A stretch of DNA of 64,000 bases from a virus, in IMG/VR virus record IMGVR_UViG_3300014838_000014, positions 46,372-110,371 of that record; one strand, given 5' to 3'. This document shows positions 2,470 through 63,557 of this stretch, piece by piece. Within the stretch, counting starts at the first letter, position 1; every line of letters begins with the position of its first letter. Made by a program: the position numbers and the translations under genes. The notes below the pieces were generated by a model. It saw only the letters and a list, made by a program, of their open reading frames with translations. It was not told the origin of the DNA and did not search any database.

Positions 2470-4719
2470 ATGAACAGTAGATTACCTCAAAAATTCGTTG
2501 GAATACACTCTCACACGGGATTCAGTCCATTTGATGGGCTCGGGTACCCTGACGAACATTTTACATGGTGTATGGAAAATGGATTAGATGCACATGCAAT
2601 AACAGACCACGGAAATTGTAACGCCTATGCTCACGCACAGCTGTGGATCGAGAAGTGGAATGCAGAGCACAAGGATAAACCTTTCAAGTACATTCCTGGC
2701 GTTGAGAGCTACTTTCACCCAGATTTGACGGCGTGGGAACAAGATAAATCGATCGCCGATCAGGCTCGTATCGATAAGAAGGTTGCAAAGAAGGTTGCTT
2801 CCTCACAGGAGGAGTACCAAACGAAGCTCATCGTCAACACAGATCAGAACGACGAGACAGAAAGCATCGAGATGACGAACGCTCTCGTCGTTGAGGACGA
2901 GGATGAGAGCAAGTCGACGAAGCACTTCAATCCCGTCAACCGTCGTCATCACCTTGTCCTGTTACCGAAGAACACCGCAGGTCTGTTGAAGATCTTTGGT
3001 CTCGTGTCGTGGTCGTACCTCCATGGGTTCTACAGGTTTCCAAGGATAGATGCCAAGCTACTTCGTGAGGCTGCAAAGGATCGCAACATCATCGCATCGT
3101 CTGCGTGCATTGCGGGACAACCTGCGTTCAATGTGTTTCAAGAAATACAGAAGCTATCGTTCGACGAGCTTGATCAGAAGCTTCTCGACGATCCTTCGCT
3201 TCTCGAGCGGTGCGTTACGTCTATTGGCAACACGTATGACCTGATGACAGACGTTCTTGGAGACGGTAACTACTACCTTGAGCTTCAGTTCAACAAGCTC
3301 GCCGCTCAGAACCTCGTGAACAGAGCGATCCTCGAGTTCGCAAAGCGTAACGGCGTCGAACAACAGCTCGTGGTGACGTGCGATTCACACTATCCTCGGC
3401 CTGAACTGTGGAAGGAACGTGAGCTCTACAAGAAGCTCGGATGGATGAACTACAAGGAGATCGATTCTGCTTCGCTACCGAACTCCGTCGATGAACTCAA
3501 GTGTCAATTGTACCCGAAGAACGCGAAGCAGCTTTGGGATGAATACCTTCTATCCAAGGAGGGAACCAGTTTCTACGATGACGACGTGATCTGCGATGCC
3601 ATCGAACGTACACACGACATCGCTCACCACGTGATCGGTGAGGTGCCGCCTGATCGTTCGCCGAAGTTCGCCGATAAGTTGCTTGTTCCAGAGGACATCA
3701 CGGCGTTCAATCACCTCGTGAAGCTGTGCATGGATGGAATGGTCAAACGCGGTCTACGTGACGATCAATCGTACGTTGACAGGTTGAAGGAGGAACTCGG
3801 CGTCATCAAGACGATGAAGAACGCCGTGTACTTCATATCGTACCAAAAAATAATGGAACTCGCTAGGAGCGTTTGTTTATGCGGTCCTGGTAGAGGTTCA
3901 GGAGGTGGATCTCTCGTTGCTTACGTCCTGTACATCACAGACCTCGATCCATTAAGGTGGGATTTGCCGTTCTCGCGGTTCCTGAGCGTGTACAGGAAGG
4001 GTGCACCTGACATAGACACCGACCTATCAAATCGCGACAAGGTTCTCGATCAATTAAGGGCATTCTTCGGGTTTGAGAACGTGGTTCCCATCTCGAACTA
4101 CAACACGTTTAAGTTAAAGACCCTTGTCAAGGACATCGGAAAGTTCTACGGCGTGCCTTTCGAGGAGACGAATGCGGCAACGAGGACGGTTGAGGAGGAG
4201 GTGCGCAAGGCGACGATGAAGGACTCGGATGATAAAAATCTTTTTGTCTTGCAGTTTGATGATGCGATGAAATATTCTCCATCGTTTAAATCTTTTATTG
4301 AAAGGTATCCAAACGTTGCAGAATCAATTAAGATATTGTTCAAACAGAACAGATCGCTTGGTCGCCACGCCGGGGGTGTATTGATTGCTGACGACTTGCC
4401 GAACAAAATGCCGCTTGTGGCAAGTCACGGCGAACCACAATCTCCATTTGTTGAAGGCGTAAACTTCAAACATTTGGAATACATTGGCAACTTTATTAAA
4501 TACGATTTGTTGGGCCTTGAAACGCTTCGTTTGATTGAAAGAACGATTGAATTAATAATCGAAAAAAATGGAGGAATTATTGAATTAGAAATTGATGGTG
4601 TCAAACATAGGTTGCTGGCTTCAGCGTACGTTAAGTTGGTTGATGGTTCATTTGTGAAAGCTGGTCTCTTAAAGGTTGATGATGATGTTATCATTCCAAT
4701 GGAGACGAGAAATGACTAA
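2470..4719 (+). CDS. dnaE: DNA polymerase III alpha, N-terminal fragment (PHP + palm) with intein-like C-terminal stub
   Basis: HSHTGFSPFDG, AITDHG, GPGRGSGGGSLVAY, PDIDTD, GRHAGGV, KYDLLGL; tail LEIDG..VKLVDGSFVKAGLLKVDDDV. Confidence 0.95.
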   Translation: MNSRLPQKFVGIHSHTGFSPFDGLGYPDEHFTWCMENGLDAHAITDHGNCNAYAHAQLWIEKWNAEHKDKPFKYIPGVESYFHPDLTAWEQDKSIADQARIDKKVAKKVASSQEEYQTKLIVNTDQNDETESIEMTNALVVEDEDESKSTKHFNPVNRRHHLVLLPKNTAGLLKIFGLVSWSYLHGFYRFPRIDAKLLREAAKDRNIIASSACIAGQPAFNVFQEIQKLSFDELDQKLLDDPSLLERCVTSIGNTYDLMTDVLGDGNYYLELQFNKLAAQNLVNRAILEFAKRNGVEQQLVVTCDSHYPRPELWKERELYKKLGWMNYKEIDSASLPNSVDELKCQLYPKNAKQLWDEYLLSKEGTSFYDDDVICDAIERTHDIAHHVIGEVPPDRSPKFADKLLVPEDITAFNHLVKLCMDGMVKRGLRDDQSYVDRLKEELGVIKTMKNAVYFISYQKIMELARSVCLCGPGRGSGGGSLVAYVLYITDLDPLRWDLPFSRFLSVYRKGAPDIDTDLSNRDKVLDQLRAFFGFENVVPISNYNTFKLKTLVKDIGKFYGVPFEETNAATRTVEEEVRKATMKDSDDKNLFVLQFDDAMKYSPSFKSFIERYPNVAESIKILFKQNRSLGRHAGGVLIADDLPNKMPLVASHGEPQSPFVEGVNFKHLEYIGNFIKYDLLGLETLRLIERTIELIIEKNGGIIELEIDGVKHRLLASAYVKLVDGSFVKAGLLKVDDDVIIPMETRND

Positions 4720-5863
4720 GTTTTACGTTTACGTTGATTCAACAACTGAAGAAACACCAAGACCTTTTTACGTTGGAAAGGGCACCAAAGACAGGATTGA
4801 TAATGAACAGCGAAACAAACGTCATGTATTTGTTTCAAATAAACACGGCTTTTCAAGAAGCGTTGTTTTCACGACTGAAAATGAAATTGAGGCGCTTTCA
4901 CACGAAGTGAAGTTGATTGCAGAACTTCACACCTACGTCAAGGATCCATTATCATCGTCGATTTCAGCAAATTTTACGTATGGTGGCGAAGGCGTTATTG
5001 GTATAAATGAACGTTGGGTTGAACAGTACAAAGACGGCGTTTTAGTCAAAAAATTTGCTAACTTTCATGAAGTTGCCGAACACTTTGGATTTACTAAGTC
5101 TGGCGTTGTTAGCAATGCATTCTCTGGTAGGTGCGTTTTTCCAGTCGTGATGCGAGAATTTACGTGGAACGTTGAACCATCGAGAAAACGTAAGTTGTCA
5201 TCGACACATGGAAATTCAATGATTATTCTCGAATTAAATCCGCAAACAAATGAAGTAATAAAAGAATATGCGTCAATCACAGAAGTTGTAAAATCAAAGA
5301 AAATAATGTACTCATACTTGATGAACGCAATTCGTTCGACCAATCCAAAAGCAATGGAGAAGTTGATCGCTAAAACGGGTAGCAAGTGGGCATTCAAGGA
5401 TGAAAAACACAACGTAGGAAAAATTCATAATTCGAACGTTCAATCACCATCAGGTCCTAAACCCGTGGTCGTTGTTTATTCAACTGGTATAAAACGTATA
5501 TATCCTTCAACTGTCAGGGCAGCACAAGCGTTGGGCATTAATCCAAATGAGTTGCTAGCGATTCTTCACGGTGATAACATTCAACGATCTGATTTTACGT
5601 GTTCATTTCTGCACGAAAGCGATCATCGTAAGGACGTTGTTAGGTCGAAGGAATGGATCAATGCGCTTGCTGGCATAAATGGAATTCAAATCGTGAAATT
5701 GGATAAGTCTGGAAACGTCATAGAAAAATTCAACTCAATTTCAGAGGCTGAACGTCGCGAAGGGTTTATGCATCATGAAATTTATAAACAATTGAGAATT
5801 GATAGCGTTTTGCATGCCAATGGGTTCACCTACAAACGTGTTGAGGAGCAATCGAATGTCTAA
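4712..5863 (+). mobile_element. Homing endonuclease (GIY-YIG-like N-terminus, NUMOD1-like repeats) inserted in dnaE
   Basis: FYVYVD...RPFYVGKG; repeated V.Q..(D/K)G..V..F.S..EA/V modules; AT-richer than flanks; 8-nt ATGnCTAA overlaps at both ends. Confidence 0.85.
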
Positions 5864-7481
5864 AATAACCTCAATCAATTCCGTCGCCACGTCGTTTGAC
5901 GACATCAAATCGTGGTACGAAACGCACCTTGCACCAAACGTCATTGACTTTGATGATCAGAAACCCTACGAAGTCTACTCTGAGGGACGGTTTTGCGGTA
6001 TATTCCAGTGCACAGGCCAAGGTGCCCAACGATTGTTTAAAAAAGCAAAACCCAAGAGCATCGTTGACATTGCAGCGTTGACGTCGATATATCGACCGGG
6101 TCCTCTTGCGGCGCACGTCGACAAGCTTTGGCTTGAACACGAACAATCGCCGTACGATTGGGGTCATCCATTGATAAATGAAACGTTGAAAAATACTCGA
6201 GGATTATTGGTGTTTCAAGAATCTGTGATGCACCTCGTCAACAAGGTTTCAGGGTTTCCGATGGCTGAGACCGATGAGGTTCGACGTGCCATCATGAAGC
6301 GTAGCATTTCTGGTGGTGAAGCTGCCAAAAAGAAAATGCAGGAACTTGAGGACAAGATTGTTGCCGGCGCAGTCAAGAACGGCGTTCCTGAGCCAACGGC
6401 ACGTAAGATGTACGAAACGATATGCTTTATGTCAGGTTATGGTTTCAATTGTGCGCACGCCGTTGCCTATAGCATCGATTCGTTTTGGTGTGCGTGGCTT
6501 TTAACGTATTATCCTGATGAGTGGGTCTGTTCATATCTCGAGTCCATGTCTACGACGCCCGATAAACGAGCAAAGGCATTCGGTGAGGTGAAGTCGTTGG
6601 GTTATCAGATCGTATCGATCGATGTCAATTACGCAAAGAAGGGTTGGACAGTTCTTCCCGGCAAGAAGTTGATGCCATCAATGTCATCGTGCAAGGGCGT
6701 CGGTGAATCGGCCGTAGATGAGATCATCTCCATGCGTCCGATTGAATCGATCGAGCGGTTGCTGTGGAACGATGACGGATCATGGCGTCCAAGCAAATTC
6801 AATTCCAGAGCGCTCGGTACGTTGATCAAGGTCGGTGCGTTCGATAGCCTCGGTTGCGTGGGTCCTGATAGAGTGTTCAAGAACTACAAACACATGCATG
6901 AAACGCTTCTTGGTTCGTATGAGGAAACCATCACACGCAGGCGAAAGGGCATCGAAGAGACGGTCGTCGTCTCTCGTGACCATTCTACTCTGCTCAAGCG
7001 ATCGACAAAGAAGGATCCACATGAGGGTCGACGTAACTTCTTTGAGCTTGCCCGTGGTCTCGCTGAAACGTGTACGGAGGAATGGACGAACCGCGAAAAG
7101 GCAGAGCTATATGCAGAGGCGTTTGGAACGGTTGACGTCATGATGATGTTCGATCAGACGTTGTTCGATAGGCTTGCTGAGAAGAACGTTCGATCTATCG
7201 AGGAGCTTGAGGTCGGTGAGAAGGACATCGTCTGGTTTGTCACCGTTGTTTGTGCGGCGAAGAAAGGCAAGGGCGTACCTTCAGCAGGAACCATGAAGAA
7301 GACCAAGAACGGTAAGTCGTACGCTCAACCGTTCGTCACCGGTCCGTCAGGAAAACCGCTACGCCTCAACGTATGGAGCGCGAAGGAGCTATTGCCGACG
7401 TATAAGCTGTGTTTTGCTGAGGTTGACAGGAATGACTACGGTTTCTCAACGACACAGTGGCGAATCAAGGAGATCGCATAA
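5856..7481 (+). CDS. dnaE: DNA polymerase III alpha, C-terminal fragment
   Basis: GIFQ, ALTSIYRPGPL, TRGLLVFQE, GYGFNCAHAVAYS, KGVGE HhH, LIKVGAFD; SD GAGGAG before ATG 5856. Confidence 0.93.
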   Translation: MSKITSINSVATSFDDIKSWYETHLAPNVIDFDDQKPYEVYSEGRFCGIFQCTGQGAQRLFKKAKPKSIVDIAALTSIYRPGPLAAHVDKLWLEHEQSPYDWGHPLINETLKNTRGLLVFQESVMHLVNKVSGFPMAETDEVRRAIMKRSISGGEAAKKKMQELEDKIVAGAVKNGVPEPTARKMYETICFMSGYGFNCAHAVAYSIDSFWCAWLLTYYPDEWVCSYLESMSTTPDKRAKAFGEVKSLGYQIVSIDVNYAKKGWTVLPGKKLMPSMSSCKGVGESAVDEIISMRPIESIERLLWNDDGSWRPSKFNSRALGTLIKVGAFDSLGCVGPDRVFKNYKHMHETLLGSYEETITRRRKGIEETVVVSRDHSTLLKRSTKKDPHEGRRNFFELARGLAETCTEEWTNREKAELYAEAFGTVDVMMMFDQTLFDRLAEKNVRSIEELEVGEKDIVWFVTVVCAAKKGKGVPSAGTMKKTKNGKSYAQPFVTGPSGKPLRLNVWSAKELLPTYKLCFAEVDRNDYGFSTTQWRIKEIA

Positions 7482-11370: not shown

Positions 11371-11419
11371 TTCCCTAAATAGGTTGTAAATGAAACAGAT
11401 CAAGTGTAAGATTGTGTGC

Positions 11420-12718
11420 ATGAAGCAACGCCTGCTCGTTCAAACGCAGCTGTCGAACATCGTCAACGGAAAATTTGACTTAGGTGCAGACTCTGGATGG
11501 CAGATGATAATCAATCGTTGCCGTGAAATGTTAAAGTTGAATGCTGACCTTTACATTGACGTTCTCGTGCCATATAATGATTATTATGACAGAGGTTTAG
11601 TGCAGTTGGTTACAAGCGTGTTCGATGTCAATCCTGATTTGTGGAAAAAGTATGGTGGCGAACGCAGATTGAACTACATCGAGCATAAAATTGTTCCGAA
11701 TGCGTTAGCAACGCGTTATGATTTTTGTTGGGAAGAAGAAATATATGCTCTCGGGTTAGACGATAAGAACAACGAACGATATGACGCTGTTTACATCAAT
11801 GATCCAATGCTTCTGAGACACTACAAGGCAATGTTTCACGTTGCTGGTGGTTATCAACCAAAGTTTTACGTACACTCGCACTTCGTTGACGTACCTGAGT
11901 GTCCGAAGTTCCCGCAGGAGGCTTCGTTGTGGTTGGGTCAGTGCGAGGCAGCGCTTCGAGCCGATTACAATTTCTGGCAGTGCGAATCTGCAATGAATCA
12001 ATTCTTCGATTCGATGGGAAAGTGGTTCACTCAGGACGTCGTTGACGATGTTCGTTCGAAGTCAATGCCGTCGGATGATGGCTATTCGATGGAAGAAATC
12101 ACTCAACCCATCGATAAAAGTAAGCTGCGTTTCTCCGTTGATGATTGGAGGCTCAAGACGTGGGGAAAGATCGTTTTGTTCTTTCCAAATAGAATTTCGC
12201 ATAGCTCTGGAGATTATACGAACGGCGTGAACTTCATGTTCAACATCCTTCCTGAGCTACGAAAACGTCGCGACGATTTTGTTGTCGTATGTGGTAATCC
12301 TAACCTGAAGTTCTCGAACGATCAGTTGCTCGAACAGTGTGGAAGGAACGGATACGTCAAGTTACACGATTTCACGTTGAACCGCGATGAGTACAAGTTT
12401 GTTGCTCAACACTCGAACATTTCGTTGGGCCTTTATAACAAGGATCCATACGGTGGAACGGCTAGCAGAGAGTGCATTGAGTCTGGATGTTATCCAATAT
12501 GGTTGAATAACTTTGAATATGCTAGCATTGCCAACGAAGCAGGCGTTGGTGAATACGTTCTTGCAAAACCTGATTTAAGCGATATCGTTGACGTTCTCGA
12601 CGAAAGGATCAATTCATACAACTTTGAAGTTGTCAAACGATTGCAGAAAGTCGTTCGTAAACGTTGTTCGTACGAGCAAACAGTACCTTCAATGATGAAA
12701 AGGATGGGCCTACTATGA
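11420..12718 (+). CDS. Putative glycosyltransferase (GT-B-like)
   Basis: [39 protein letters not shown]; directly upstream of epimerase and dCMP hydroxymethylase; promoter TTGTAA-N17-TAAGAT 11384-11412. Confidence 0.6.
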
Positions 12719-13683
12719 AAGTTGTGATAACGGGTTGTGCAGGTTTCATCGGTAGCAACCTCGCCGTTCATTGTTTAAACTTGGGGTGGGATGTCGTTGG
12801 AATCGACGACATGAGCAACGGTCACCGTGAGTTCGTTGATGATCGCGTTGATCTGATTGAGAGGCAATTCGATAGTGGATTTAACGACGTTCTTAAATGG
12901 TCTGAACGACCAGACGTCGTTGTTCACCTGGCCGCTCTACCCAGAGTGAGTTATTCAGTGGAGAATCCTGCGAAGACGTTCGAGGTCAACGTTCTTAGGT
13001 CGATGTCGTTGATCAAGTCGTGCTGTGATAATGGCATTCCGATCGTCTTTGCGAGCTCATCCAGCGTTTATGGTGGTGCTGATACGTTGCCAACCGTAGA
13101 ATCCGATCAGAAGAAACCAAAGTCACCTTATGCGCTTCACAAGTCAACCATTGAGGATTACTTGGAATTATATGGTAAATTGTACGGATTGAAATCAATA
13201 TCTCTGCGATTTTTTAACGTGTTCGGTAAGAACCAATTGGGAAGTTCACCGTATTCGTGTGCCGTGTCTGCGTGGTTGACAGCGATTCATAGTGGTCAAC
13301 CGATGCGTTCTGATGGCGACGGAAAACAGAGCCGTGACCTGTGTCACGTTGACAACGTTACCGATGCATGCGTTAGATCGATCAAGTGCTTGTCTCGCGA
13401 TCCATCTCATACCCTTCTGGGGGCAAGATATAACGTTGCTTGTGGAAAATCAGTGACAAACAATGAGATCATAGATTACATGATGAAGAGGTATCCCGGT
13501 GCAACGAAGATAGATTCTCATTGGCGCGCCGGTGATGTAATGCATACGTTGGCCAGCATCGAAAGCGCGCGTTCTGGATTGGGTTATGTGCCCATGGTTG
13601 AGGTATGGACAGGAATTGAACGGACGTGTGATTGGTACGATGCTAATTGGGACGCGATCAAGAACATGAAGAAGGGACTATAA
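12715..13683 (+). CDS. NAD-dependent NDP-sugar epimerase/dehydratase (GalE/WbpP-like)
   Basis: GCAGFIGS, HLAALPRV, FASSSSVYG, PKSPYALHK, LRFFNVFG, GDGKQSRD. Confidence 0.9.
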   Translation: MKVVITGCAGFIGSNLAVHCLNLGWDVVGIDDMSNGHREFVDDRVDLIERQFDSGFNDVLKWSERPDVVVHLAALPRVSYSVENPAKTFEVNVLRSMSLIKSCCDNGIPIVFASSSSVYGGADTLPTVESDQKKPKSPYALHKSTIEDYLELYGKLYGLKSISLRFFNVFGKNQLGSSPYSCAVSAWLTAIHSGQPMRSDGDGKQSRDLCHVDNVTDACVRSIKCLSRDPSHTLLGARYNVACGKSVTNNEIIDYMMKRYPGATKIDSHWRAGDVMHTLASIESARSGLGYVPMVEVWTGIERTCDWYDANWDAIKNMKKGL

Positions 13684-14444
13684 TGTACTATAAAAACGGC
13701 GTGTCAGACATCAGACGGGAGTTTTCGTACCTTCTTAAGAATGGACATTTCACGAGCTTCGATCGCGAGGCTTCGATGACGAGCATCGTTGGTTCTAAGA
13801 CGATCGAAATCATCGGCGCAGCGTTCATCGTTGATGACAGCGTGATCTTTGGAAAGGTCAACGATGACTATGTCGCTCGAGAACATGCATGGTACGTGTC
13901 AAAGTCATTGAGCGTTAATGATTTTCCTGGCGGCGCACCTGAGGTGTGGAAGGCGATTGCATCAAAAACGGATGCAATGGTGAACTCGAACTACGGTTAC
14001 CTCGTGTACGGTGTGGAAAACAATTCTCAGCTTGAACATGCCATCGCTGAGTTGAAGAAGAACGAAGAGAGTCGTAGGGCGATTGTGATTTATACGCGTC
14101 CAACGATGTGGAATGATTACAACGTTGATGGAAGAAGCGATTTTGTTTGTACGAATGCAGTGCAATACGTCATTCGCGATGGTTACGTTGATGCAATCGT
14201 GCAGATGAGATCAAACGATTCTCACATAGGTTATAAGAACGATTGCGCGTGGCAAAAAACGTGTCTACGCGAGGTTGCGAGCGCAGTCAATTATCCAGCT
14301 GGCAAAATTTACTGGCAGGTTGGTTCTTTGCACGTTTATGAAAGGGATTTCTACCTCGTTGATCATTATTCAAAGACGGGCGAAACGAGCATCACGAAGA
14401 AGCAATACAATGAATTGTACCCGAGCTCGTGTTACAATCGGTGA
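13683..14444 (+). CDS. dCMP hydroxymethylase (T4 gp42-like)
   Basis: KTIEIIGA.F, RE..WY.SKSL.V.D, NSNYG, SRR...IYTRP.M, DF.CTN.VQY, MRSND...G.KND (Asp specifying dCMP), GSLHVY.R.FYLVDH..KTGET all recall T4 gp42. Confidence 0.9.
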   Translation: MYYKNGVSDIRREFSYLLKNGHFTSFDREASMTSIVGSKTIEIIGAAFIVDDSVIFGKVNDDYVAREHAWYVSKSLSVNDFPGGAPEVWKAIASKTDAMVNSNYGYLVYGVENNSQLEHAIAELKKNEESRRAIVIYTRPTMWNDYNVDGRSDFVCTNAVQYVIRDGYVDAIVQMRSNDSHIGYKNDCAWQKTCLREVASAVNYPAGKIYWQVGSLHVYERDFYLVDHYSKTGETSITKKQYNELYPSSCYNR

Positions 14445-15024: not shown

Positions 15025-15608
15025 CATGCATCGTTGGAGTCGTTGATGGTGACCATGTATTGATCGGTGGCGATTCGTTAGAAAGCGATGCATATGCCAG
15101 CGCAGAAGGCGATTCGTACGTGCTTCAACGCAACGATGAAAAGGTGTTCGTGCTCGGTGAGTTCGTCGTTGGGTTTTGTGGTAGCTATCGCGTTGGTCAA
15201 TTGATTCGTTATTCGTTCAAACCAAATTCACCGAAGGCGAACGATGATAACATAATGTCATACATGGTGAATGAATTCATCAATGTGTTACGAACAACGA
15301 TGGAACAACACGGAACGTTGAAAACTGTTGAAGGAGAGGAATCGTTCGATGCTCAACTTCTCGTTGGATGGCAAAATAGGTTGTTTGTGATCGGTGATGA
15401 TTTTAACGTTGGAATCATGAAGGATGAATGGTGTGCAATCGGTTCTGGATCCCAATTCGCATTGGGATCGTTGCACACGACGAGCGAATTAGAAGATCAG
15501 ATTTCGACCGATGAAAGGATCAAACACGCCCTTAGAGCAGCATCGATGTACAGTCCATGGTGTAAGGGACCATACACGTTGGTGAGGACGCCAATCAACA
15601 ATGAGTAA
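15021..15608 (+). CDS. HslV/proteasome-beta-like Ntn hydrolase 2
   Basis: MTCIVG, GGDS, KVF, AIGSGSQFALG; GTGA-coupled paralog. Confidence 0.75.
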   Translation: MTCIVGVVDGDHVLIGGDSLESDAYASAEGDSYVLQRNDEKVFVLGEFVVGFCGSYRVGQLIRYSFKPNSPKANDDNIMSYMVNEFINVLRTTMEQHGTLKTVEGEESFDAQLLVGWQNRLFVIGDDFNVGIMKDEWCAIGSGSQFALGSLHTTSELEDQISTDERIKHALRAASMYSPWCKGPYTLVRTPINNE

Positions 15609-16176
15609 ATCACCCACGCTTACGGTTTATACGGGACCAATGTTCTCTGCAAAGACGTCTAGGTTGTTGCTCGATCTCGAAAGGTTCAAGCACCAACACA
15701 GGAACGTCATGGCGTTCAAACCGGTGATCGACGATCGTTACAGCGACGTGGACATCGTTTCACATATGGGTTGGCGTTACCCGGCGATCGGCATAACGGA
15801 GGGTGCTGACGTCCTGAAGCTGCTTGCAGAACGAAATCATCCATCTGACGTTGTTGCCGTTGACGAAGCATTCATGGTCGTTGGCATCTCCGAGGTGCTC
15901 ATCTGGTTGTATCGCACGGGCATCGACGTTGTCGTCTCGACGCTTGACTTATCCTCGACTGGGAAACCATTCAAGGAAGTTGAGAAGCTCCTACCGTGGG
16001 CCACGAGGGTCGAGAAGTGCGTTGCTGTGTGTGCAGAATGTGGTCGCGACGCGGCATACACGCATAAAAAACTGGTTTCCGGGAACGAGATTGAGATCGG
16101 TGGCGCTGAGTTGTACGAACCCAGGTGTTTGTTTCACCATGCGTTGATCTACAAGAGACCGAAGCTTGGCGAGTGA
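15601..16176 (+). CDS. tdk: Thymidine kinase
   Basis: GPMFSAKTS, FKP.IDDRY, VAVDEAF, AVC..CG..A, IGG.ELYEPRC. Confidence 0.92.
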   Translation: MSKSPTLTVYTGPMFSAKTSRLLLDLERFKHQHRNVMAFKPVIDDRYSDVDIVSHMGWRYPAIGITEGADVLKLLAERNHPSDVVAVDEAFMVVGISEVLIWLYRTGIDVVVSTLDLSSTGKPFKEVEKLLPWATRVEKCVAVCAECGRDAAYTHKKLVSGNEIEIGGAELYEPRCLFHHALIYKRPKLGE

Positions 16177-16180
16177 TTCG

Positions 16181-16516
16181 ATGAAACCTGGCGACCTCAT
16201 CGAATGGGTGTTCAAACGTAATTCTCAACCTGTCGATGAGGATGCCGAACTCTGGTCAACGACGATGAAGCGTTGGGCTCCAATCGGCGCTCATCCCATG
16301 ATGCTCATTTCGATGACAGACGAATTCTACATGTGGTTGACCCCGAAGGGGTTGTTCCACGCGCACCCGGATGACACGCCGGTTCCGATCCCGTTAATCA
16401 CATCGACTCGGGTTGTTCCGCGCGCGTGGATGACACAGACAACTACGTGCGAACCTGGTGGCGCGAAGACAGTTATTCCACGCGACTTATCGGAGAACAT
16501 CGATGAAACCAGGTGA
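16181..16516 (+). CDS. MKPGDLIEW-family protein, copy 1 (reads through two spacers)
   Basis: Family core; 2-nt deletion in repeat 2 removes the usual stop. Confidence 0.75.
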   Translation: MKPGDLIEWVFKRNSQPVDEDAELWSTTMKRWAPIGAHPMMLISMTDEFYMWLTPKGLFHAHPDDTPVPIPLITSTRVVPRAWMTQTTTCEPGGAKTVIPRDLSENIDETR

Positions 16517-16769
16517 CCTCATCGAATGGGTGTACAAATGTAATTCTAAACCTGTTCACGAGAGTGAACAAATCTGGTCAACGCCGATGCAATACTGGAT
16601 TCCAGTCGGCATTCATCCTACGATCCTCACTTCGATCACCGACGAGTTTTATGTGTGGCTGAACCCGAATGGTTTGTTCCACGCGCGCATGGACGACACG
16701 TATGCAAGGGTGGGATGGAAGACGGGCAAGGAACGGGTCGTTCCACGCGTTGTCGGAGAACATCGATGA
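16503..16769 (+). CDS. MKPGDLIEW-family protein, copy 2
   Basis: SD GGAG inside terminal repeat of previous unit. Confidence 0.8.
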   Translation: MKPGDLIEWVYKCNSKPVHESEQIWSTPMQYWIPVGIHPTILTSITDEFYVWLNPNGLFHARMDDTYARVGWKTGKERVVPRVVGEHR

Positions 16770-17026
16770 AACCAGGTGATCTAATTGAGTGGGCGTACAA
16801 TCGTAATTTTCTACCCGTTCGTAAGAATGAGGAACTCTGGTCAACGCCGATGAAACGCTGGATTCCAATCGGCGTTCATCCCATGATGCTCATTTCAATC
16901 ACTGACGAGTTTTGTTATTGGTTGACGCCCGATGGGTTGTTTCACGCACGCAGGGATGACACCTCTGCAATCGCCGATCCCATGACGATGCGCGCCGGTT
17001 GTTCTATATGCGTGTGGATGACATGA
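16766..17026 (+). CDS. MKPGDLIEW-family protein, copy 3
   Basis: Family core; 34-nt spacer shifts the tail frame. Confidence 0.8.
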   Translation: MKPGDLIEWAYNRNFLPVRKNEELWSTPMKRWIPIGVHPMMLISITDEFCYWLTPDGLFHARRDDTSAIADPMTMRAGCSICVWMT

Positions 17027-17042
17027 GTGTCGGAGAACATCG

Positions 17043-17300
17043 ATGAAACCAGGTGACCTCATCGAATGGGTGTACAAACGTAATTCTAAACCTGTTCACG
17101 AGAGTGAACAAATCTGGTCAATGTCGATGAAGAATTGGATTCCAATCAGTGTTCGTCCCGCAGTCCTCATCTCGATCACCGACGAGTTCTACGTGTGGCT
17201 GAACCCAAATGGGTTGTTCCACGCGTGTAGGGATGACACAGGAGTCCACCACCGTGGGCTGTACAGCCGGACTCCGGTTGTTCCGCGCACGCAGGGATGA
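17043..17300 (+). CDS. MKPGDLIEW-family protein, copy 4
   Basis: Family core; stop inside repeat 2. Confidence 0.8.
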   Translation: MKPGDLIEWVYKRNSKPVHESEQIWSMSMKNWIPISVRPAVLISITDEFYVWLNPNGLFHACRDDTGVHHRGLYSRTPVVPRTQG

Positions 17301-17414
17301 CACGATGTTCGTGTGGCCTGTAAACGAGCGAGGAACGGTTGTTCCCAGTGTTGTCTGACCGATCAATTTTCACCACGAACCTGTAGTTTGAATGAATGAA
17401 GAGTAGATTAACAT

Positions 17415-17894
17415 ATGGTTTTTATTCAAGATTCTGGAGAAGAAACAATGGTTGATTGTACAAACATAGAGCGTCCTTCGTGGCCTGAAGTGTGGATGGC
17501 GCTTGCTGAGAAGATTTCTGAACGTTCATACGATCCACGTTTACGCGTCGGTGCGATCATCGTCAGCGTTGACAACACGTCGGTGTTGAGCGTTGGGTAC
17601 AACGGAAACGCGCGAGGGTTACCAAACGTGCCTGAATCTTCTGAACCAGGAAAAAGTGGGTTTTTGCACTCTGAGCTGAATGCGTGCATAAAAGCCGACT
17701 ATCATTTCTTGGGTGAGAAGGTCATGTACTGCACGCATTCAACGTGTAGGGATTGTGCTCGAATACTCATCAACTTTGGAATTTCGAGGTTTGTGTACAA
17801 AACGAAGTACCGCGATGCGTCAGGCCTCGACCTGTTGACTCAAGGTGGTATTGAAGTTATGAGCCTTGATGATGCAGTACTTAAAGCACGATGA
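17415..17894 (+). CDS. dCMP deaminase (alternative start 17448)
   Basis: RPSW, RS.D...VGAIIV, GYNG, HSELNA, HSTCRDC. Confidence 0.88.
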   Translation: MVFIQDSGEETMVDCTNIERPSWPEVWMALAEKISERSYDPRLRVGAIIVSVDNTSVLSVGYNGNARGLPNVPESSEPGKSGFLHSELNACIKADYHFLGEKVMYCTHSTCRDCARILINFGISRFVYKTKYRDASGLDLLTQGGIEVMSLDDAVLKAR

Positions 17895-18175
17895 AGAAAT
17901 TGCAGGAAATCGACGTGATTCGTGTGATGCGTGAGGAATGGAAGCTACGTGTTGATGCAGTTCGTGAAGCCGTTGACGTTGTCGCAAACGCTTGCGTTGG
18001 TGATGCAGGTGAACTTCCCGTTTTAACGCCTGGTCTCAAGGTACGACACAAGGATTCGCAGATACGTTACACGATTCACTCGATCGGTCCACGCGATGTC
18101 ATTCTGAAGACGCCTGAAGGCGAGAAGTTCCTCGTTGATTCAGGAACGTTGGAAAACGAATATCAACTTGATTGA
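17891..18175 (+). CDS. Hypothetical protein with leader motif and SH3-like tail
   Basis: MKKLQE...VMREE; PGLKVRHKDS..YTI.S.G. Confidence 0.6.
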   Translation: MKKLQEIDVIRVMREEWKLRVDAVREAVDVVANACVGDAGELPVLTPGLKVRHKDSQIRYTIHSIGPRDVILKTPEGEKFLVDSGTLENEYQLD

Positions 18176-18177
18176 TG

Positions 18178-18435
18178 CTACTCGAGATCGCCGATCTCTG
18201 GATCCCACACTTCGGTGTCGTCTACAACGATCGCTAGGTCACCATCGCGTGTGTTTAAGTCAGCTCTGACATTGTCACCCGTAGGATACCTCGTGTCACG
18301 TTTCTTGAACGTTACGAGCTTACGAATCACGGGTTTGCCATCATCATCGTCTCGACGTATGATGCTCTGATCGAGCGCGCCACCCATTGCTTCGATGTAT
18401 TCTAAAATGCATTGCTTGAGCAATTTGGTCGACAT
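18178..18435 (-). CDS. Hypothetical protein with leader motif
   Basis: MSTKLLKQCILEYIEA. Confidence 0.5.
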   Translation of the reverse strand: MSTKLLKQCILEYIEAMGGALDQSIIRRDDDDGKPVIRKLVTFKKRDTRYPTGDNVRADLNTRDGDLAIVVDDTEVWDPEIGDLE

Positions 18436-56689: not shown

Positions 56690-56935
56690 TCATGTTCTCT
56701 TTACGTGTATCGAACACCTGTGTAACGTGAACCGCGTCTTTGGATTGCTTGGATCGACGAAATCATCGATGTGTTGAATCGCCGGATTGCCACACTTGTG
56801 ATAGACCACCGTGCCAACGCCACGAGGCTTGTTGTCGTTCGTAAAGTCTTCTTCTCGACGTTCAACTACGATCTTCACGTTATTCAACTTGTGAATTGTT
56901 GGAAAGCAGATTGAGCACGTGTTTGGATCTATCAT
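56690..56935 (-). CDS. Hypothetical Cys/His protein
   Basis: CSIC..KCG..RCS.H; TGGTAAAAT promoter-like motif upstream. Confidence 0.5.
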   Translation of the reverse strand: MIDPNTCSICFPTIHKLNNVKIVVERREEDFTNDNKPRGVGTVVYHKCGNPAIQHIDDFVDPSNPKTRFTLHRCSIHVKRT

Positions 56936-56972
56936 CGTGCTTCAATTTTACCACAGACGAAGCGATCGTTCA

Positions 56973-57090
56973 CTCGTGGAGCGCCTTCGCTTGAGGGTGG
57001 CATGAACACCTTTCTTCGCATGAAGGCGCTCCGTGGTGATCACGAGGGCGATGAACGATCACCGTTCATGGGGTCGAAACCATCCACGTA
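56973..57090. ncRNA. Candidate structured non-coding RNA next to array cluster 2
   Basis: GGAGCGCCTTC/GAAGGCGCTCC 11-bp stem, outer CTCGTG/CACGAG, ATGAACG/CGTTCAT hairpin, GGT-CGAA-ACC hairpin; no ORF. Confidence 0.35.
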
Positions 57091-57158
57091 ACGCAATCTT
57101 TTATTTGCAAAGTGAACAAACCAAGCTCCACCCGAACCATGAATTCGTACTGTGAGCG

Positions 57159-57443
57159 TCATCCGCATGCAAGTGTAACAACCACGTGCCATCCACGTGC
57201 GCGCGGAACAACCATCCAGAGGTCCATCCGCTCCGATAGCGTCCCGGTATTATCTACACACGCGCGGAACAACCCCTCAGGCGTCAGCCACACGTAGAAC
57301 TCATCGGTGATCGAGATGAGGACGGCGGGATGAACACCGATAGGAATCCAACGATTCATCGGCGTTGACCAGAGTTTCTCATTCACATCAACGGGTTGAG
57401 AATTAGATATATACACCCACTCGATGAGGTCACCTGGTTTCAT
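57159..57443 (-). CDS. MKPGDLIEW-family protein, copy 5
   Basis: Family core; repeat-2 stop mutated to TGG. Confidence 0.8.
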   Translation of the reverse strand: MKPGDLIEWVYISNSQPVDVNEKLWSTPMNRWIPIGVHPAVLISITDEFYVWLTPEGLFRACVDNTGTLSERMDLWMVVPRARGWHVVVTLACG

Positions 57444-57703
57444 CTATGTTCTCCAATAATGCGTGGAACAACCCAGTATCGGGTGCCGACGGTCAACCTC
57501 GAAGAAGCGTCATCAACGCGCGCGAGGAGCAGGCCCTCAAGCGTCAGCCAAAAATAAAACTCGTCAGTGATTGAAATGAGCATCATGGGATGAACACCAA
57601 TGGGAACCCAACGTTGCATCGGCGTCGACCAAAGTTTGGCATCTTTATGAACATGTTGAGAATCATATTCATGTACCCACTCAATTAGATCGCCAGGTTT
57701 CAT
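57440..57703 (-). CDS. MKPGDLIEW-family protein, copy 6
   Basis: Family core; ends VVPRIIGEHR. Confidence 0.8.
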   Translation of the reverse strand: MKPGDLIEWVHEYDSQHVHKDAKLWSTPMQRWVPIGVHPMMLISITDEFYFWLTLEGLLLARVDDASSRLTVGTRYWVVPRIIGEHR

Positions 57704-57771
57704 CGATGTTCTCCGATAAGTCGCGTGGAATAACCATCGGAGGTGGAACGACGGAGGTAGCCGTCATCGTG

Positions 57772-58026
57772 TCATCCACGCGCGCGTGGAACAACCTCGA
57801 TGACCAAGGCGCTCACGGCGACTGCGCTGGTGTCATCCACGCGCGCGTGGAACAACCCCTCAAGCGTCAACCACATGTAGAATTCGTTGGTGATCGAAAC
57901 GAGGATGGCAGGTCGAACGCCGATGGGAATCCAACGTTGCATCGGTGTCGACCAGAGTTCGGCATCCTCATCGACGGGTTGAGAATCAGATTTATACACC
58001 CATTCAATTAGATCACCTGGTTTCAT
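57772..58026 (-). CDS. MKPGDLIEW-family protein, copy 7
   Basis: Consensus repeats; ends VVPRARG*. Confidence 0.85.
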   Translation of the reverse strand: MKPGDLIEWVYKSDSQPVDEDAELWSTPMQRWIPIGVRPAILVSITNEFYMWLTLEGLFHARVDDTSAVAVSALVIEVVPRARG

Positions 58027-58286
58027 CTATGTTCTCCGACGACGCGTGGAACAACCCGCGGCATGCGGGCTCTTGCGGGGGACGAGAAAGTGTCATCCAC
58101 GAGCGCGTGGAACAACCCATTTGGGTTCAGCCACACGTAGAACTCGTCGTTGATCGAGATGAGGACTGCGGGACGAACACCAATTTGAATCCAGCGTTTC
58201 ATTGACGTTGACCAGAGTTGCTCATTTTCATCAACTGGTTGAGAATTACGTTTGTACACCCATTCAATCAAATTACCTGGTTTCAT
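58023..58286 (-). CDS. MKPGDLIEW-family protein, copy 8
   Basis: Family core; ends VVPRVVGEHR. Confidence 0.8.
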   Translation of the reverse strand: MKPGNLIEWVYKRNSQPVDENEQLWSTSMKRWIQIGVRPAVLISINDEFYVWLNPNGLFHALVDDTFSSPARARMPRVVPRVVGEHR

Positions 58287-58351
58287 TGAAGCACCTCATG
58301 ACGCGTGGAACAACCGACGGTGGGGGCCATCGACGAGTGGACCTCGTCATG

Positions 58352-58606
58352 TCATCCACGCACGCGTGGAACAATCTTAGGACGAGATGTACGTCTTGGA
58401 GACCGACGCGTGTCATCCACTCGCGCGTGGAACAACCCCTCAAGCGTCAACCACGTGTAGAACTCATCGGTGATCGAGATGAGGACGCCGGGATGAACAC
58501 CGATTGGAATATAACGTTGCATTGACGTTGACCAAAGCCTCTCATTCTCAATAACGGGTTGAGAATTAATGGCATACACCCACTCGATCAAATCACCTGG
58601 TTTCAT
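58352..58606 (-). CDS. MKPGDLIEW-family protein, copy 9 (first of operon, likely leaderless)
   Basis: Family core; ends IVPRVRG*. Confidence 0.8.
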   Translation of the reverse strand: MKPGDLIEWVYAINSQPVIENERLWSTSMQRYIPIGVHPGVLISITDEFYTWLTLEGLFHARVDDTRRSPRRTSRPKIVPRVRG

Positions 58607-58612
58607 GGTTCA

Positions 58613-58641
58613 ATAATAACAAGAAAGATGAACGGTTACAC
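58613..58641 (-). promoter_or_regulatory. Sigma70-like promoter for MKPGDLIEW cluster 2
   Basis: GTGTAA-N17-TATTAT ends 6 nt before ATG 58606. Confidence 0.65.
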
Positions 58642-61145
58642 TTCAATGTAGCACCACGAAGTTATAATTCGATCGAAACCAGAACAATCCATCGTGAAAT
58701 AATGCATTAAAATATACATAATTATCATAAAAGTCAACATTATCACATATTATCTCAACGATGAAACATATTTCACTTTCGACCCAGTCACGGATCGTTC
58801 CGTTGTTCATACGTTCGAGTTCAATAGAAACTTTTTCCACGTTAAAAGGACCAATCCACTCATCAATCTGTGAGTTATATTCACCGTATGTAGGAAACAC
58901 GATCAATTGTCCGGGTGAATATTTATTCATTTGATTTGCTGATCAGAAATGACATTGAAACCATCGTACGTCTGAAACCAGAAGACTCCATCTGCAAACA
59001 AAGCACGAATGACGAAGTAATCATAACGTTCAAATTCATTCGATTCGATGATAACACACGCCTCATTACAACACCATTCACGGCAATATGCTCTAAGACT
59101 AGAATGGCTTAAATAAGTTCTTCTATGAAGAAACAGCGAACTGCAGAAATGAAGCGATCTTTTTGGAAACACGACCAAGTGTCCTGGTTTGGGTTTGATT
59201 ATCATCTGTGTCTGTTCATCGTTGAACGAGTGTACAATCGAAACCAGAAAACGCCGTCCGTGAACAAAGCTCTGACGTAAAAACACTCAGTGAAAGCATC
59301 CACGTGCAATTCGATAATAATACATATCTCGTTAAAACGCCACATGCGCTCGTACTTTTTAAACCTACGCGATCCATCACCTATATCATCACAGCGCCCG
59401 TACAGGCGTTTAAATATTTTTCCACCAACAGAATGTTCATTATTAAATGAGCTCGGAAAGATGATTAATTGACCGACGAATATTGCGTCATCACTGTTTG
59501 TCTTCATTGTTCACGATATGAAAAAGTTGAACGACGTGCGAAACCAAAAGATTCCATCTACGAACAAAGCTCTGACGTCAAAATCATTGTACGCTGCGTA
59601 TCTGTTTAAAACAGATTCAATCACAACGCACGCCTCATTCGGTTTCCAATTACGAACATATTCATGTAAGAACGATGAATTATTATTTGAATTCAAACGT
59701 CTGTCTTGACACAGTCCAGAGGCAAAGTCGGAAGTCGCTCCAGTCATTAATTTTGGAAATACGATCAGTTGTCCAACATAAATTTCCTCGTTCATGTTTC
59801 TAATTTGCCGTAAACAACTCTACTTCAATGAAACGAAACGTTGCACTGCTCATCGTCAACAAACGCAGCTGAATTTACTACCCGTACGAAACCAGAACGT
59901 ACCATCTACGAACAGCGCTCGAACGTCGAATCTATTTTGATAGAACTTATCTTCCTTCGATAAATCAACCTTATATGCTTCAATAACGATGCACGCTTCG
60001 CTCGATGTCCAATTCCGTACGAACGCGTTTGCAAACATCTTCCACGAAGGGTCGGCGAATTCGCTTCTTTTACGGTTGAATAAATACGTTGCAAAGTTAA
60101 GGTCATCGAATCTATTGCGCGACGGAAACGTGACCAGTCGTCCGCTCATAGAGCGTTCTTGTAACTCTTTCATCAAGACCTTCGTTGCTTCGTTGTTCAT
60201 CCTAGAGACCCTTTTAATGAGTTAAAATTGAACCAGAAAACGCCATCGGTGAACAAAGCTCTAACGTTGATCCACATTGATAAACAAGTAGAAGGACAGA
60301 TTTCACGAACTTCAATGACAACGCACGATTCACCCCATTTCCACATACGTGCAAACGTTGCCAATAACCCGATGCCATCGAAAGAATGGTATAGATTTCC
60401 ATGGAAGTTGAAGTTGTTTACACCGATCAATGACGTCGGAAAGACGATGAGCTCGCCAACGAATGGACGTTTGCTGATACCATCGTTTGACACGATCATC
60501 TAACCGTTGATGAGCTAGAACGTTGGAATTGATTTCTGAACGTCTGGAACCAGAACGCTCCGTCGTGAAAGAGACACCTGACGAGCCGATTGCTAGCCTC
60601 AGTGAATTTCATGGACAATGGATTGATGGCATCATGCGCTTCAAGAACGATGCACGGTTCATCGAATTGCCAATCTCGAACGAAACCAAGCAATGGAAAC
60701 AACCCGGAAATACTTCGATCAAAAAATAAAAATAGACTAGAAAGATAGATCTCATTGCGTGCAGAAGGAAACACGAACAGCTCGCCCGGTAACAGAGACT
60801 GTTTATTATCTGATTTCATTGGAATGACAAATCATACTTCAATGGCTGACGACATTACACCGCGGGTTTATCATTATCAATTATATGATAGAACCAGAAC
60901 ACTCCGTCGACGAACAGGGCTTTGGTGATGATGGAGTTAGACAACACTGCATTCGTTTTCTTCGTTTCAATGATCAAGCATACCTCGCCGACATTCCATT
61001 TCCTGATGCTTGAATCCAAATATGGATATTCTTTAGAAGAAGAACTGCTGATCTTCGACAAGGCCAAGTACCGTTGTCGACCGTATAGAACATCGTTGAA
61101 TCCGGACACGATTTCACAAGATTGAAACACGTACAGGTCTCCCGG

Positions 61146-61592
61146 TTCAATGCAAAGAAGCTTCTTCGATCGGTTCATGTGCTTCTTAGGAAGACGTACC
61201 AGTCTCCGATGAAGTATGTCCAGCGTTTGACTCGTCCGCGAGGTGCATTGTACTCGACGAGTGACGATTCTTAAATTTAATCATTTGTGTTCTACGATTT
61301 CATTGACAATCATAATAAAACACAAACACCGCGGAATCACGTGCGAAAAAAGCCTTGACAATGAAAACACCAACTTCATCATTCAACGCTGAATTTATGA
61401 TAAAACACACTTCATCATATTCCCACCTTCTTATTTTAACATCGTTTTTATCGTTGTACAAGAAACTGCTGATTCCGCCGCCATAAACACCATGCGACGG
61501 AAACACGAAGACATCGCCCGGTGCAGGTTGCAACGATTCAGTGCAAAGAAGCCTCTTCGGTCGTTTCATGTGCTTCTTAGGAAGACGTACCA
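61146..61592. repeat. About 56-bp direct repeat (61146-61201 and 61537-61592) covering the starts of two family-C paralogs
   Basis: TTCA(A/G)TGCAAAGAAGC(T/C)TCTTCG(A/G)TCG(G/T)TTCATGTGCTTCTTAGGAAGACGTACCA. Confidence 0.85.
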
Positions 61593-61605
61593 GGTCTTGG
61601 TTCAA

Positions 61606-61912
61606 TGATTTTCACGCGTGCGCTCGAACCATTGAATCTGACCCTGATCGTCAAGAACGGCCGTTATGAATCCCCAGCCTTCTTTTGGACCCACAGCTAT
61701 GGATCCAACCAATCCATTGAGCAGTCCAAGAAATCCCACGTTCTTACCGATGAAACCTGAATGGTGGGGTGATTGTAAGTGGCTTCAGAAACAGGAACTT
61801 TGACCTGAAACAAGGCACTTATGTCTTTACAAATACCTGGATCAGAAATCAACTCATTCAAACGAGATACGAGTAGATCTGTCGAGTCTTCGTTTGTTAT
61901 TTGGTCATTCAT
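61606..61912 (-). pseudogene. Frameshifted phage gene (HPTIQV / VGFLGLLNGLVG halves)
   Basis: HPTIQV frame derails; the -1 frame gives GKNVGFLGLLNGLVG..GWGFITAV..FERT. Confidence 0.45.
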
Positions 61913-62791
61913 GATTCCGTTGTCTTTCTTGGTTTCTCGATCGTGTAACTGATCTGATTCAGATCTTGGGTCTCTTTGAAACGCTTCCCATTGGTCCCCT
62001 AGTTTTGCCACAGATGAATGAAATAGTAAAACATAAACACGGCGTTGTCCGTGAACAGAGCATCAACTTTTAAACGATCAAGGACATCATCCTTAGAAAC
62101 GTTCAGAACGAAGCACATCTCTCCTTCGATCCACCGTCGGCCGTAGCATGGCACGCCGTGATTGTTCAACCACAGCCACGATCCATAATAATACCCGTCA
62201 GTTGAAAACACGAACAGGTCGCCCGGCTCGATGATCTCACGATGTGCGGAGACAAAATCGTTTTTCGATGAAGTGGCAGCGTCCGCGCCGATCACGAGCT
62301 CGTCCTCCACTTTCTCTCCGCACAAACGTCAACGTGATGAGTCGGACAGTGGTAGAACCAGAACGTTCCGTCGACGAACAGGCCCCTGACGATGTTGTAG
62401 AAATTATTCAACGTTCTATTTTCATACGTCTCCAGAACGAGACACGATTCGTTTGGTTTCCATTTCCTGACAACATCATCCAAAAAATGTAACGTGTGTG
62501 GTGGATGGCTGAAGACATTCCTTTGAGCGTACAGCTCGTCGCTGAATAACATCGGTGCACGCTTTACATATGTGATCAGTTGACCCAACTTGGGCAACGA
62601 TGTAGACGATGATTTCATCGGCGTCGATGGCACTCAGTCGTCCTTCTTGCGTACGGTGGCTCCACAACGCGTGCAGACGTCCTTTACGTACACTCTGTAG
62701 TAGAACATCCTACGCGTGTCCTCGATGATCGAAAGCGGCACTTCGTCGTACCGAGCTCTGAAGCTGTGTCCGAAGCGGCTCGTGCACTTGT

Positions 62792-62986
62792 TTACCATGG
62801 TGATGAAACTCGAGTCTCTGTTTTGCGTGTTGATGGTGGAGACCGGTAGATTATGATCGAACGTTCGATCCTAGAATCGAAAGGTCGTCGCCACATCGTC
62901 AAACCTCCCAGGTCCGTCAGATAGACACACAAACTCAGCGCCACGATGACGCCGGTGAACCACGAGACCTTATCGATTGTTGTCAT
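62792..62986 (-). CDS. Small membrane protein
   Basis: One TM; SD GGAG. Confidence 0.5.
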   Translation of the reverse strand: MTTIDKVSWFTGVIVALSLCVYLTDLGGLTMWRRPFDSRIERSIIIYRSPPSTRKTETRVSSPW

Positions 62987-63557
62987 TTCTCTTCTCCGTC
63001 ATTCGTCATCATCGTGCGTGGCATAACCCTACTATCGAACTGGCTATGTTTGTGGCCTTCGTGGAAATCCACACGTGCGTGGAACAACCCATCCGGTGTC
63101 AGCCACATGTACAATTTGTCTGTGATCGAAATCAAAATTGCTGGGTGAACACCAATTGGAACCAAACGTTGCATCGGCGTAAACCAAAGTTTGACATCCT
63201 CATTAACGGGTTGAGAATTATTTCTGTACACCCATTTAATGAGGTCACCGGGTTTCATCGATGTTCTTCTTTCATTCATTTGCATCACCACTGCAATCCA
63301 TGAGCACATGCTGAGCCACCTTGTCATCGCCGGCAACCAACACAGGTCGCTGAAGGAACGACGTTTGGTGGGAGATCCAGCAACAACCGGATTCGGTGAT
63401 CATGATGTGGGTCCTGGTACGGCTGGAATGGGTCATGGTGGGCATCTGATCCCATGGTCGGATTTGCTTCGAAGAAGAAACATACGCCGACATCGATCGA
63501 TCTCTACGTTCCTTGAGACGCCGGTGAACCACGAGACCTTATCGATTGTTGTCATTT
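62948..63557. repeat. Exact 41-bp direct repeat (62948-62988 and 63517-63557) bracketing MKPGDL copy 10
   Basis: GACGCCGGTGAACCACGAGACCTTATCGATTGTTGTCATTT at both positions. Confidence 0.9.
62983..63258 (-). CDS. MKPGDLIEW-family protein, copy 10, with one degenerate repeat-spacer-repeat
   Basis: MKPGDLIKW..GLFHARVD..RVMPR; repeats 63062-63089 and 63001-63028, 61 nt apart. Confidence 0.75.
   Translation of the reverse strand: MKPGDLIKWVYRNNSQPVNEDVKLWFTPMQRLVPIGVHPAILISITDKLYMWLTPDGLFHARVDFHEGHKHSQFDSRVMPRTMMTNDGEEK

Follow-up and report, generated by a model that had tools for sequence, protein, structure and literature searches.

Miniature CRISPR arrays carried by viruses are known (Medvedeva 2019, PMC6858448; Iranzo 2020, PMC7099407), and the part of Al-Shayeb 2020 (PMC7162821) that deals with CRISPR in huge phages describes compact, cas-less arrays with spacers against bacterial genes. 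The repeat finder SRUFinder masks predicted ORFs before the repeat search (PMC10651486), and ORF-embedded repeats like those described here would therefore be missed; such arrays fall into a blind spot of ORF-masking repeat finders.

The stretch of DNA analyzed here (the window, 64,000 nucleotides) is part of a ~128-kb (128,363-base) phage contig from peat. Its GC content is 46.9%, its gene content reads as that of a large phage, and DNA of this phage is present in peat and permafrost metagenomes from 16 studies. We consider it probable that the phage carries cassettes, each consisting of a small gene and a cas-less, I-E-like mini-array, in which the degenerate last repeat acts as the translation-initiation region of the next gene.

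The window also encodes a DnaJ protein, a GroEL-like chaperonin, a superoxide dismutase and a 5′-3′ exonuclease, together with the nucleotide-metabolism genes for thymidine kinase (15601-16176), a thymidylate-synthase-like protein and a dCMP deaminase. Sugar epimerase/dehydratase genes adjoin the thymidylate-synthase-like gene (1-1688 and 11390-14444). At 2470-7481 DNA polymerase III alpha (DnaE) is split into two ORFs, and a homing-endonuclease ORF with NUMOD-type motifs lies between them. A blastn search of 15600-18200 against phage records gave no match.

A small gene family and its in-frame arrays

Ten gene copies of a family recognizable by the motif MKPGDLIEW are present in the window, and every CRISPR-like repeat belongs to one of them. 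The plus strand has four copies (16181-17300); the minus strand has a cluster of five (58606-57159) and a single one (63258-62983). The plus-strand cluster is made up of A1 (16181-16516, including a translated array tail), A2 (16503-16769, the stop of which overlaps the A3 start in an ATGA), A3 (16766-17026) and A4 (17043-17300). The minus-strand cluster consists of B1 (58352-58606), B2 (58023-58286, stop overlapping the B3 start), B3 (57772-58026, the copy behind the structure model), B4 (57440-57703, stop overlapping the B5 start) and B5 (57159-57443). The solitary minus-strand gene C1 (62983-63258) has two degenerate repeats (63089-63062 and 63028-63001).

Two further features were observed around these genes. 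The C1 cassette is bracketed by a perfect 41-nt direct repeat (62948-62988 and 63517-63557). This repeat is a duplicated copy of the 5′ end of the downstream gene, and has the look of a scar left when a 569-nt segment was inserted or duplicated. Immediately upstream of cluster B lies another tandem family (58643-62633, minus strand) with about 12 small paralogous genes; their products of 95-119 residues have N-terminal and C-terminal motifs in common, and the family is without CRISPR-like repeats.

Differences between the copies of the MKPGDLIEW gene are distributed over codon positions 1, 2 and 3 as 525/392/878, the third position being the most variable. By this measure purifying selection acts on the gene, a conserved coding sequence, and the same figures contradict the original prediction in its description of the gene body as an oversized spacer. 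The protein family comprises 40 clusters, all of them metagenomic, with a conserved core of 66 residues. An AlphaFold model built from the family alignment (mean pLDDT 88.8) is a small all-beta barrel; in it the two strands encoded by repeats 1 and 2 pair with each other. The protein matched no family in Pfam or PHROGs. With the model as query, Foldseek found nothing at E <= 0.001 and VIA-align only matches with Z <= 4.4, to SH3/Tudor-like barrels; none of the Atlas neighbours of the protein was named. Known families and solved folds thus give no function for it.

The repeat has a 28-nt consensus with a palindromic core, which is matched eight times in the window (<=3 mismatches) against no matches in 100 shuffles; about 25 copies are found in the 64 kb once more mismatches are allowed. 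In each gene copy repeat 1 starts ~169 nt after the ATG, within the reading frame, and repeat 2 starts 61-64 nt past repeat 1; some copies have a third repeat. Repeat 1, the first spacer and repeat 2 are all translated. Repeat 2 is read one frame over from repeat 1 and normally supplies the stop codon of the gene, so that the two repeats are the same DNA in two different reading frames. In cluster A the repeats lie at 16350-16377 (A1 repeat 1, within the coding sequence), 16411-16436 (A1 repeat 2, 26 nt long owing to a 2-nt deletion), 16672-16699 (A2 repeat 1), 16935-16962 and 16997-17024 (A3 repeats 1 and 2, the latter full length), and 17212-17239 and 17276-17303 (A4 repeats 1 and 2), all on the plus strand. 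On the minus strand both B3 repeats equal the consensus exactly: repeat 1 (57830-57857) has a predicted RNA hairpin of -13.2 kcal/mol, and repeat 2 (57769-57796) provides the B3 stop codon. In B5 a third repeat-like element (57183-57156) was observed 2 nt past the second repeat, with no intervening spacer.

Related loci from viral and metagenomic sequences were gathered by means of the family protein and of pairs of repeat 5′ halves. With few exceptions, true repeat pairs in the window and these relatives are found 160-178 nt downstream of the start of a family gene. The loci contain 61 distinct units with one to four repeats each, and the period is 61 nt in 45 of their 70 intervals. In divergent lineages the same DNA change is found in both repeats, which therefore evolve in concert. 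Covariation in the repeat hairpin was no better than in shuffles.

The terminal repeat at the start of the next gene

The original prediction was that the element at 16736-16763 aligns end to end with the repeat consensus and doubles as the ribosome-binding site of the next gene. On re-reading, the coordinates and letters of this element and its four sister elements proved correct. It ends 2 nt before the A3 start codon (ATG at 16766), the same layout is found at 58029-58056 and 57446-57473, and the 2-nt insertion claimed for the elements at ~57706-57735 and 16471-16500 is present. The alignment itself stood in one half only: the 5′ half of 16736-16763 agrees with the consensus at 13/14 positions and the 3′ half at 6/14 (shuffle P 0.105). 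In the comparison with shuffled controls, which had been set beforehand as the refutation, the 3′ half thus did no better than the shuffles, and 28% of generic SD-ATG sites score equally in the same register.

The position of the element in the array is regular. As the second repeat of unit A2, and its last, it keeps to the array register, with a start 64 nt from that of the repeat before it (16672); it has GGAG in its 3′ half and is read as the tail of A2. The terminal repeat of A1 (16471-16500, with the 2-nt insertion) has GGAG before the A2 start. On the minus strand GAGG precedes the B2 start in the terminal repeat of B1 (58288-58315, a third, untranslated repeat), and GGAG precedes the B3 and B5 starts in those of B2 (58029-58056) and B4 (57446-57473), each of the latter two lying 61 nt after the preceding repeat. 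The terminal repeat of B3 (57706-57735), again a third and untranslated one, has the 2-nt insertion. The GGAG stands 7-8 nt before the next ATG. The junctions at 16471-16500 and 57735-57706, 40 kb apart on opposite strands in the two clusters, have an identical stretch of 39 nt in common.

On average over the window and its relatives, the 3′ half is degraded in the last repeat. Mean agreement with the consensus in the 5′ and 3′ halves is 12.8/14 and 10.9/14 for repeat 1 (n=48), 13.4/14 and 11.7/14 for internal repeats (n=22), and 12.8/14 and 4.5/14 for the last repeat before a family gene (n=13). GGAG or GAGG is present in the 3′ half of 12 of these 13 last repeats. At several cluster ends the 3′ half of the last repeat was lost and no SD was gained; an example is the terminal repeat of A4 at 17337-17364 (5′ half 11/14, 3′ half 3/14). 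In at least 16 of 22 distinct tandem junctions the 5′ half of the repeat occupies roughly -31 to -18, with an SD at roughly -11 to -8, and in 13 of 23 the upstream stop overlaps the next start.

RNA folding of the junctions gave -4.7 to -7 kcal/mol (z -0.25 to +1.4), as against -13.2 and -9.7 kcal/mol (z about -1.5) for full repeats, and the predicted hairpin is gone from the terminal repeat. An SD hidden in a terminal-repeat hairpin was considered and rejected, the junction folds being no more stable than those of shuffles. The earlier picture of a gene framed by two repeats is not supported, the upstream one being a hairpin-less remnant. We found no promoter-like or terminator-like site at the junctions, and promoter-like sites were not commoner than in shuffles.

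The terminal element is a repeat remnant and not a coding artefact, because it is in register and because the untranslated third repeats (58315-58288 and 57735-57706) retain the 5′ half; the 5′ half is therefore not kept by coding alone. The junction layout also supports the earlier claim that the last repeat of a unit sits at the ribosome-binding position of the next gene, and we infer that it functions as such.

The SD could have reached this place in another manner. The SD-bearing 14-18 nt may be the gene's own leader, fused by deletion to a truncated repeat, in which case there would be no dual use; we regard this as possible though unlikely. The chance-level similarity of the 3′ half agrees with such a fusion. 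So does the piece at 17025-17042, which contains an SD and no repeat 5′ half and lies directly after a full repeat and before the A4 start: together with that repeat it spans 16997-17042, and the arrangement of a full repeat, 1-3 nt and this SD piece recurs in the relatives L003 (just ahead of the gene starting at 10001) and L002 (just ahead of the gene starting at 7713). This piece could be a separate module that elsewhere is fused to a truncated repeat. The leader of the solitary C1, too, ends in a similar way and has no repeat 5′ half. A leader belonging to the gene is, however, hard to reconcile with the ~35 cluster-first family genes, which, except for C1 and two L112 copies, are without it, many of them being coupled to an unrelated gene upstream. 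The maintenance of the exact 28-nt footprint and of the 61-64 nt register also speaks against a fusion, as does the distant lineage L006, where the nearly intact 3′ end of a repeat serves as SD and start. Its last repeat (3964-3991) retains 13/14 of the 3′ half; the order is GAGGA, four letters and the start codon, of which the repeat supplies GAGGA and the first two letters of the start codon. This layout reads as a second route to the same arrangement of repeat and SD.

Likeness to type I-E arrays and the source of the spacers

We compared the phage repeats with those found beside type I-E cas2 in 11 Acidobacteriota genomes, which are 29 nt long with a 61-nt period. The phage repeats are identical to six Acidobacteriota I-E repeats at 18-23 of 29 positions (shuffle P <= 0.005). 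Because of their geometry, unique spacers, bacterial protospacers and likeness to I-E repeats, the units are best classified as genuine CRISPR-type arrays in I-E style.

No cas family was found among the 30 larger window ORFs scanned. The contigs of relatives (up to 324 kb, incomplete) had no match to Cas1 or the Cas3 core and none to Cas6e or Cas7e, the latter in weak searches whose controls scored in one control genome only. Among ~185,000 bacterial species-representative genomes no array with the phage repeat was detected. A strict repeat pattern had 0 matches in viral contigs and in representative-genome contigs; a looser one gave, in the representative-genome contigs, 67 single chance matches and one phage-like contig in a Bdellovibrionota MAG. 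This 89-kb contig (L065, contig 9 of G001) has one cassette at ~15600-15925 with exactly the repeat core of the window and is probably a phage contig; the MAG showed no Cas1 or Cas6e match and no protospacer for the two spacers of L065. Rfam had no family for the repeats at gathering score or E <= 10 and no CRISPR-DR match, and the phage sequence preceding repeat 1 has no evident motif in common with the leaders of host I-E arrays. Three related repeats with two spacers were observed without a family gene at L099:985-1135. This array was rejected as a cas-adjacent one; it sits on a 67% GC element encoding an integrase and a primase (PriCT-2, Toprim, DUF927).

Of the 70 spacers in the 61 units, 68 are distinct, 45 have a length of 33 nt and 38 have G as the first letter. 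Their GC content is 0.59-0.68 regardless of that of the phage locus (0.375-0.586), and three low-GC phages have near-identical genes with entirely different spacers. For a protospacer search, contigs from four public runs were aligned with 56900-58900. For three spacers of cluster B we found metagenome contigs that match the spacer alone, exactly, and have unrelated flanks. B4 spacer 1 (57474-57506, minus strand) has an exact 33-nt match in a pilB-like gene, which is on other contigs from these metagenomes, in one DNA run and one RNA run; B3 spacer 2 (57736-57768, minus strand) matches exactly in an mreB gene; and B3 spacer 1 (57797-57829, minus strand) matches in a gene for a beta-lactamase-fold protein, in the SxxK region. 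The translated protospacer flanks were recognized as a PilB N-terminal domain (best PDB match E 5e-5), MreB (Pfam E 6.7e-6) and the SxxK region of a beta-lactamase-fold enzyme (E 0.004). Of 401 Acidobacteriota genomes, four match the mreB spacer over precisely its own span at 88-91%, and two match much of the beta-lactamase-fold spacer at 93-96%; these loci are bona fide mreB and beta-lactamase-family genes. The three spacers come from bacterial genes.

No exact match to the spacer at 57474-57506 was found among viral contigs, and no spacer matches any of the phage loci gathered as relatives; the three targets identified are bacterial genes, not related viruses. The flanks of the three protospacers have no PAM-like motif in common (n=3). 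All three spacers are antisense to the bacterial mRNA (pilB-like, mreB, beta-lactamase-fold), an orientation as expected for blocking transcription, which at n=3 is suggestive only.

The same repeats might instead act mainly at the level of RNA, as mimics (Racr- or crRNA-like) titrating the Cas6e and Cascade of the host, with the spacers and the terminal repeat as by-products. We consider this unlikely. The ~25 repeat copies in 64 kb, the lack of cas genes and the close likeness to I-E repeats are what would be expected of decoys, which are known in phages (PMC10651486; bioRxiv 10.1101/2024.10.29.618823). Decoys, however, have no need for bacterial-gene spacers of fixed length or for an open frame through the first spacer. 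That frame is more open than in shuffles: a stop in the translated frame occurs in 0 of 48 first spacers versus 13.8 (sd 3.0) in shuffles, and the other two frames have stops in 16 and 8. Among the later, untranslated spacers 1 of 22 has a stop in the would-be gene-adjacent frame versus 5.8 expected (P 0.005). The stop counts suggest that an open tail has been selected for, and the pattern is consistent with the entry of new units at the gene-proximal end. Decoy activity and the cassette model, with its array and re-used last repeat, are compatible and do not exclude one another.

A more doubtful idea is that the cassettes are a protein diversifier driven by CRISPR adaptation. Each new spacer at repeat 1 would become an 11-residue loop between the repeat-encoded beta-strands, and the SD-bearing terminal repeat would let cassettes amplify and be expressed as operons. 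If this were so, the phage would gain a library of variable binders made from captured DNA.

Mosaic boundaries, a model and known systems

Recombination between repeats had also been proposed in the original prediction, and here a comparison of the window with the related phage L004 bears it out. A 283-nt module consisting of a repeat, a spacer, the terminal repeat, gene B2 and a repeat is common to both and 86-96% identical: identity is 95% over repeat 2 of B1, the spacer and the terminal repeat, 86% over the core of gene B2 and 96% over B2 repeat 1. It is 37% upstream of B1 repeat 2 and 20% over the spacers that follow (one in the window, two in L004), and rises to 90% in the next terminal repeat and gene start. 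The unrelated flanks begin exactly at the repeat edges, and the genes upstream of the module are not orthologous. These alignments support the repeats as boundaries of recombination, or mosaicism. Contig joints in public runs were rejected as population breakpoints, the sides being 21-28 nt, which is the repeat length; one loose contig end came from a paralogous cluster and was not counted as a breakpoint. RNA contigs from run X16 cover parts of cluster B; they are uninformative on transcript ends, and some may stem from DNA carry-over.

It is highly improbable that the elements are not CRISPR at all and represent a PeSL-type intergenic regulatory or recombination cassette or protein-level repeats: they do flank small genes in a paralogue-rich region, mark mosaic boundaries and resemble PeSL cassettes (PMC2839356, PMC4122927), but the junctions are without promoter or terminator signals, repeats 1 and 2 share one DNA sequence across two frames, and the exact protospacers in bacterial genes together with the I-E-like geometry and sequence largely refute this reading already.

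The cassette model that we favour can be put as follows. Each gene runs in frame into repeat 1, followed by one 33-nt spacer, a repeat 2 that normally has the stop codon, and zero to two more repeat-spacer units. Spacers would be captured from bacterial DNA by the type I-E adaptation complex (Cas1-Cas2) of the host, at repeat 1 and during infection. The last repeat is degenerate, its 5′ half being kept and its 3′ half and hairpin lost. In clusters amplified head to tail an SD takes the place of the lost 3′ half, 7-8 nt ahead of the next start, and the upstream frame often ends in an ATGA stop/start overlap, so that a single stretch of 28-30 nt would form both the end of the array and the region where translation of the next cistron begins. 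The cluster may then be read as one operon through translational coupling, and recombination at the repeats would reassort the cassettes. If a Cas6e-type enzyme cuts intact repeats, the frames would be severed at repeat 1 and the hairpin-less terminal repeat spared, which would leave each downstream gene its SD.

If the model is correct, CRISPR repeats can be co-opted as modules of gene expression and recombination. The system would also lend itself to testing whether spacers are loaded into phage DNA by the adaptation complexes of the host, and whether the phage turns host Cascade on host genes such as mreB and pilB.

Ordinary CRISPR arrays end, on the side away from the leader, in a repeat that has diverged chiefly in its 3′ part. 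The terminal repeats described here resemble it in that the 5′ half is kept at 12-13/14 and the 3′ half is degraded; unlike in ordinary arrays, the degraded half is filled with an SD and a stop/start overlap when a cassette follows.

The units resemble virus-borne mini-arrays (PMC6858448, PMC7099407) in having one to four spacers and no cas genes, with a presumed reliance on host Cas proteins. They differ in that the array is fused in frame to a gene and present in dozens of copies per genome in tandem chains, and in that the three spacers identified come from bacterial housekeeping genes, where the mini-arrays have spacers from rival viruses. As far as the CRISPR section of the huge-phage paper (PMC7162821) goes, those arrays are similarly without adaptation and interference genes and have spacers matching bacteria of the same sample; that section, unlike what is seen here, makes no mention of coding overlap, a translated spacer or a terminal repeat serving as ribosome-binding site.

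Like RNA anti-CRISPRs and solitary repeat units (Camara-Wilpert 2023, PMC10651486), the elements are phage-borne mimics of CRISPR repeats, type I-E included. Those RNAs are non-coding and mostly spacerless, whereas here the repeats come with spacers and the first one lies in an ORF. The PeSL cassettes of T4-type phages (PMC2839356, PMC4122927) are similar as repeated intergenic motifs that provide expression signals for small genes and take part in modular shuffling; a PeSL, however, is a promoter and a terminator stem-loop, and here the motif is a CRISPR repeat remnant with an SD. A limited full-text literature search did not yield any account of a reading frame with a fused array, or of ribosome-binding-site use of a terminal repeat. 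Nor did it yield an array combining a coding tail, a store of bacterial-gene spacers and, by way of the last repeat, the translation start of the next copy.
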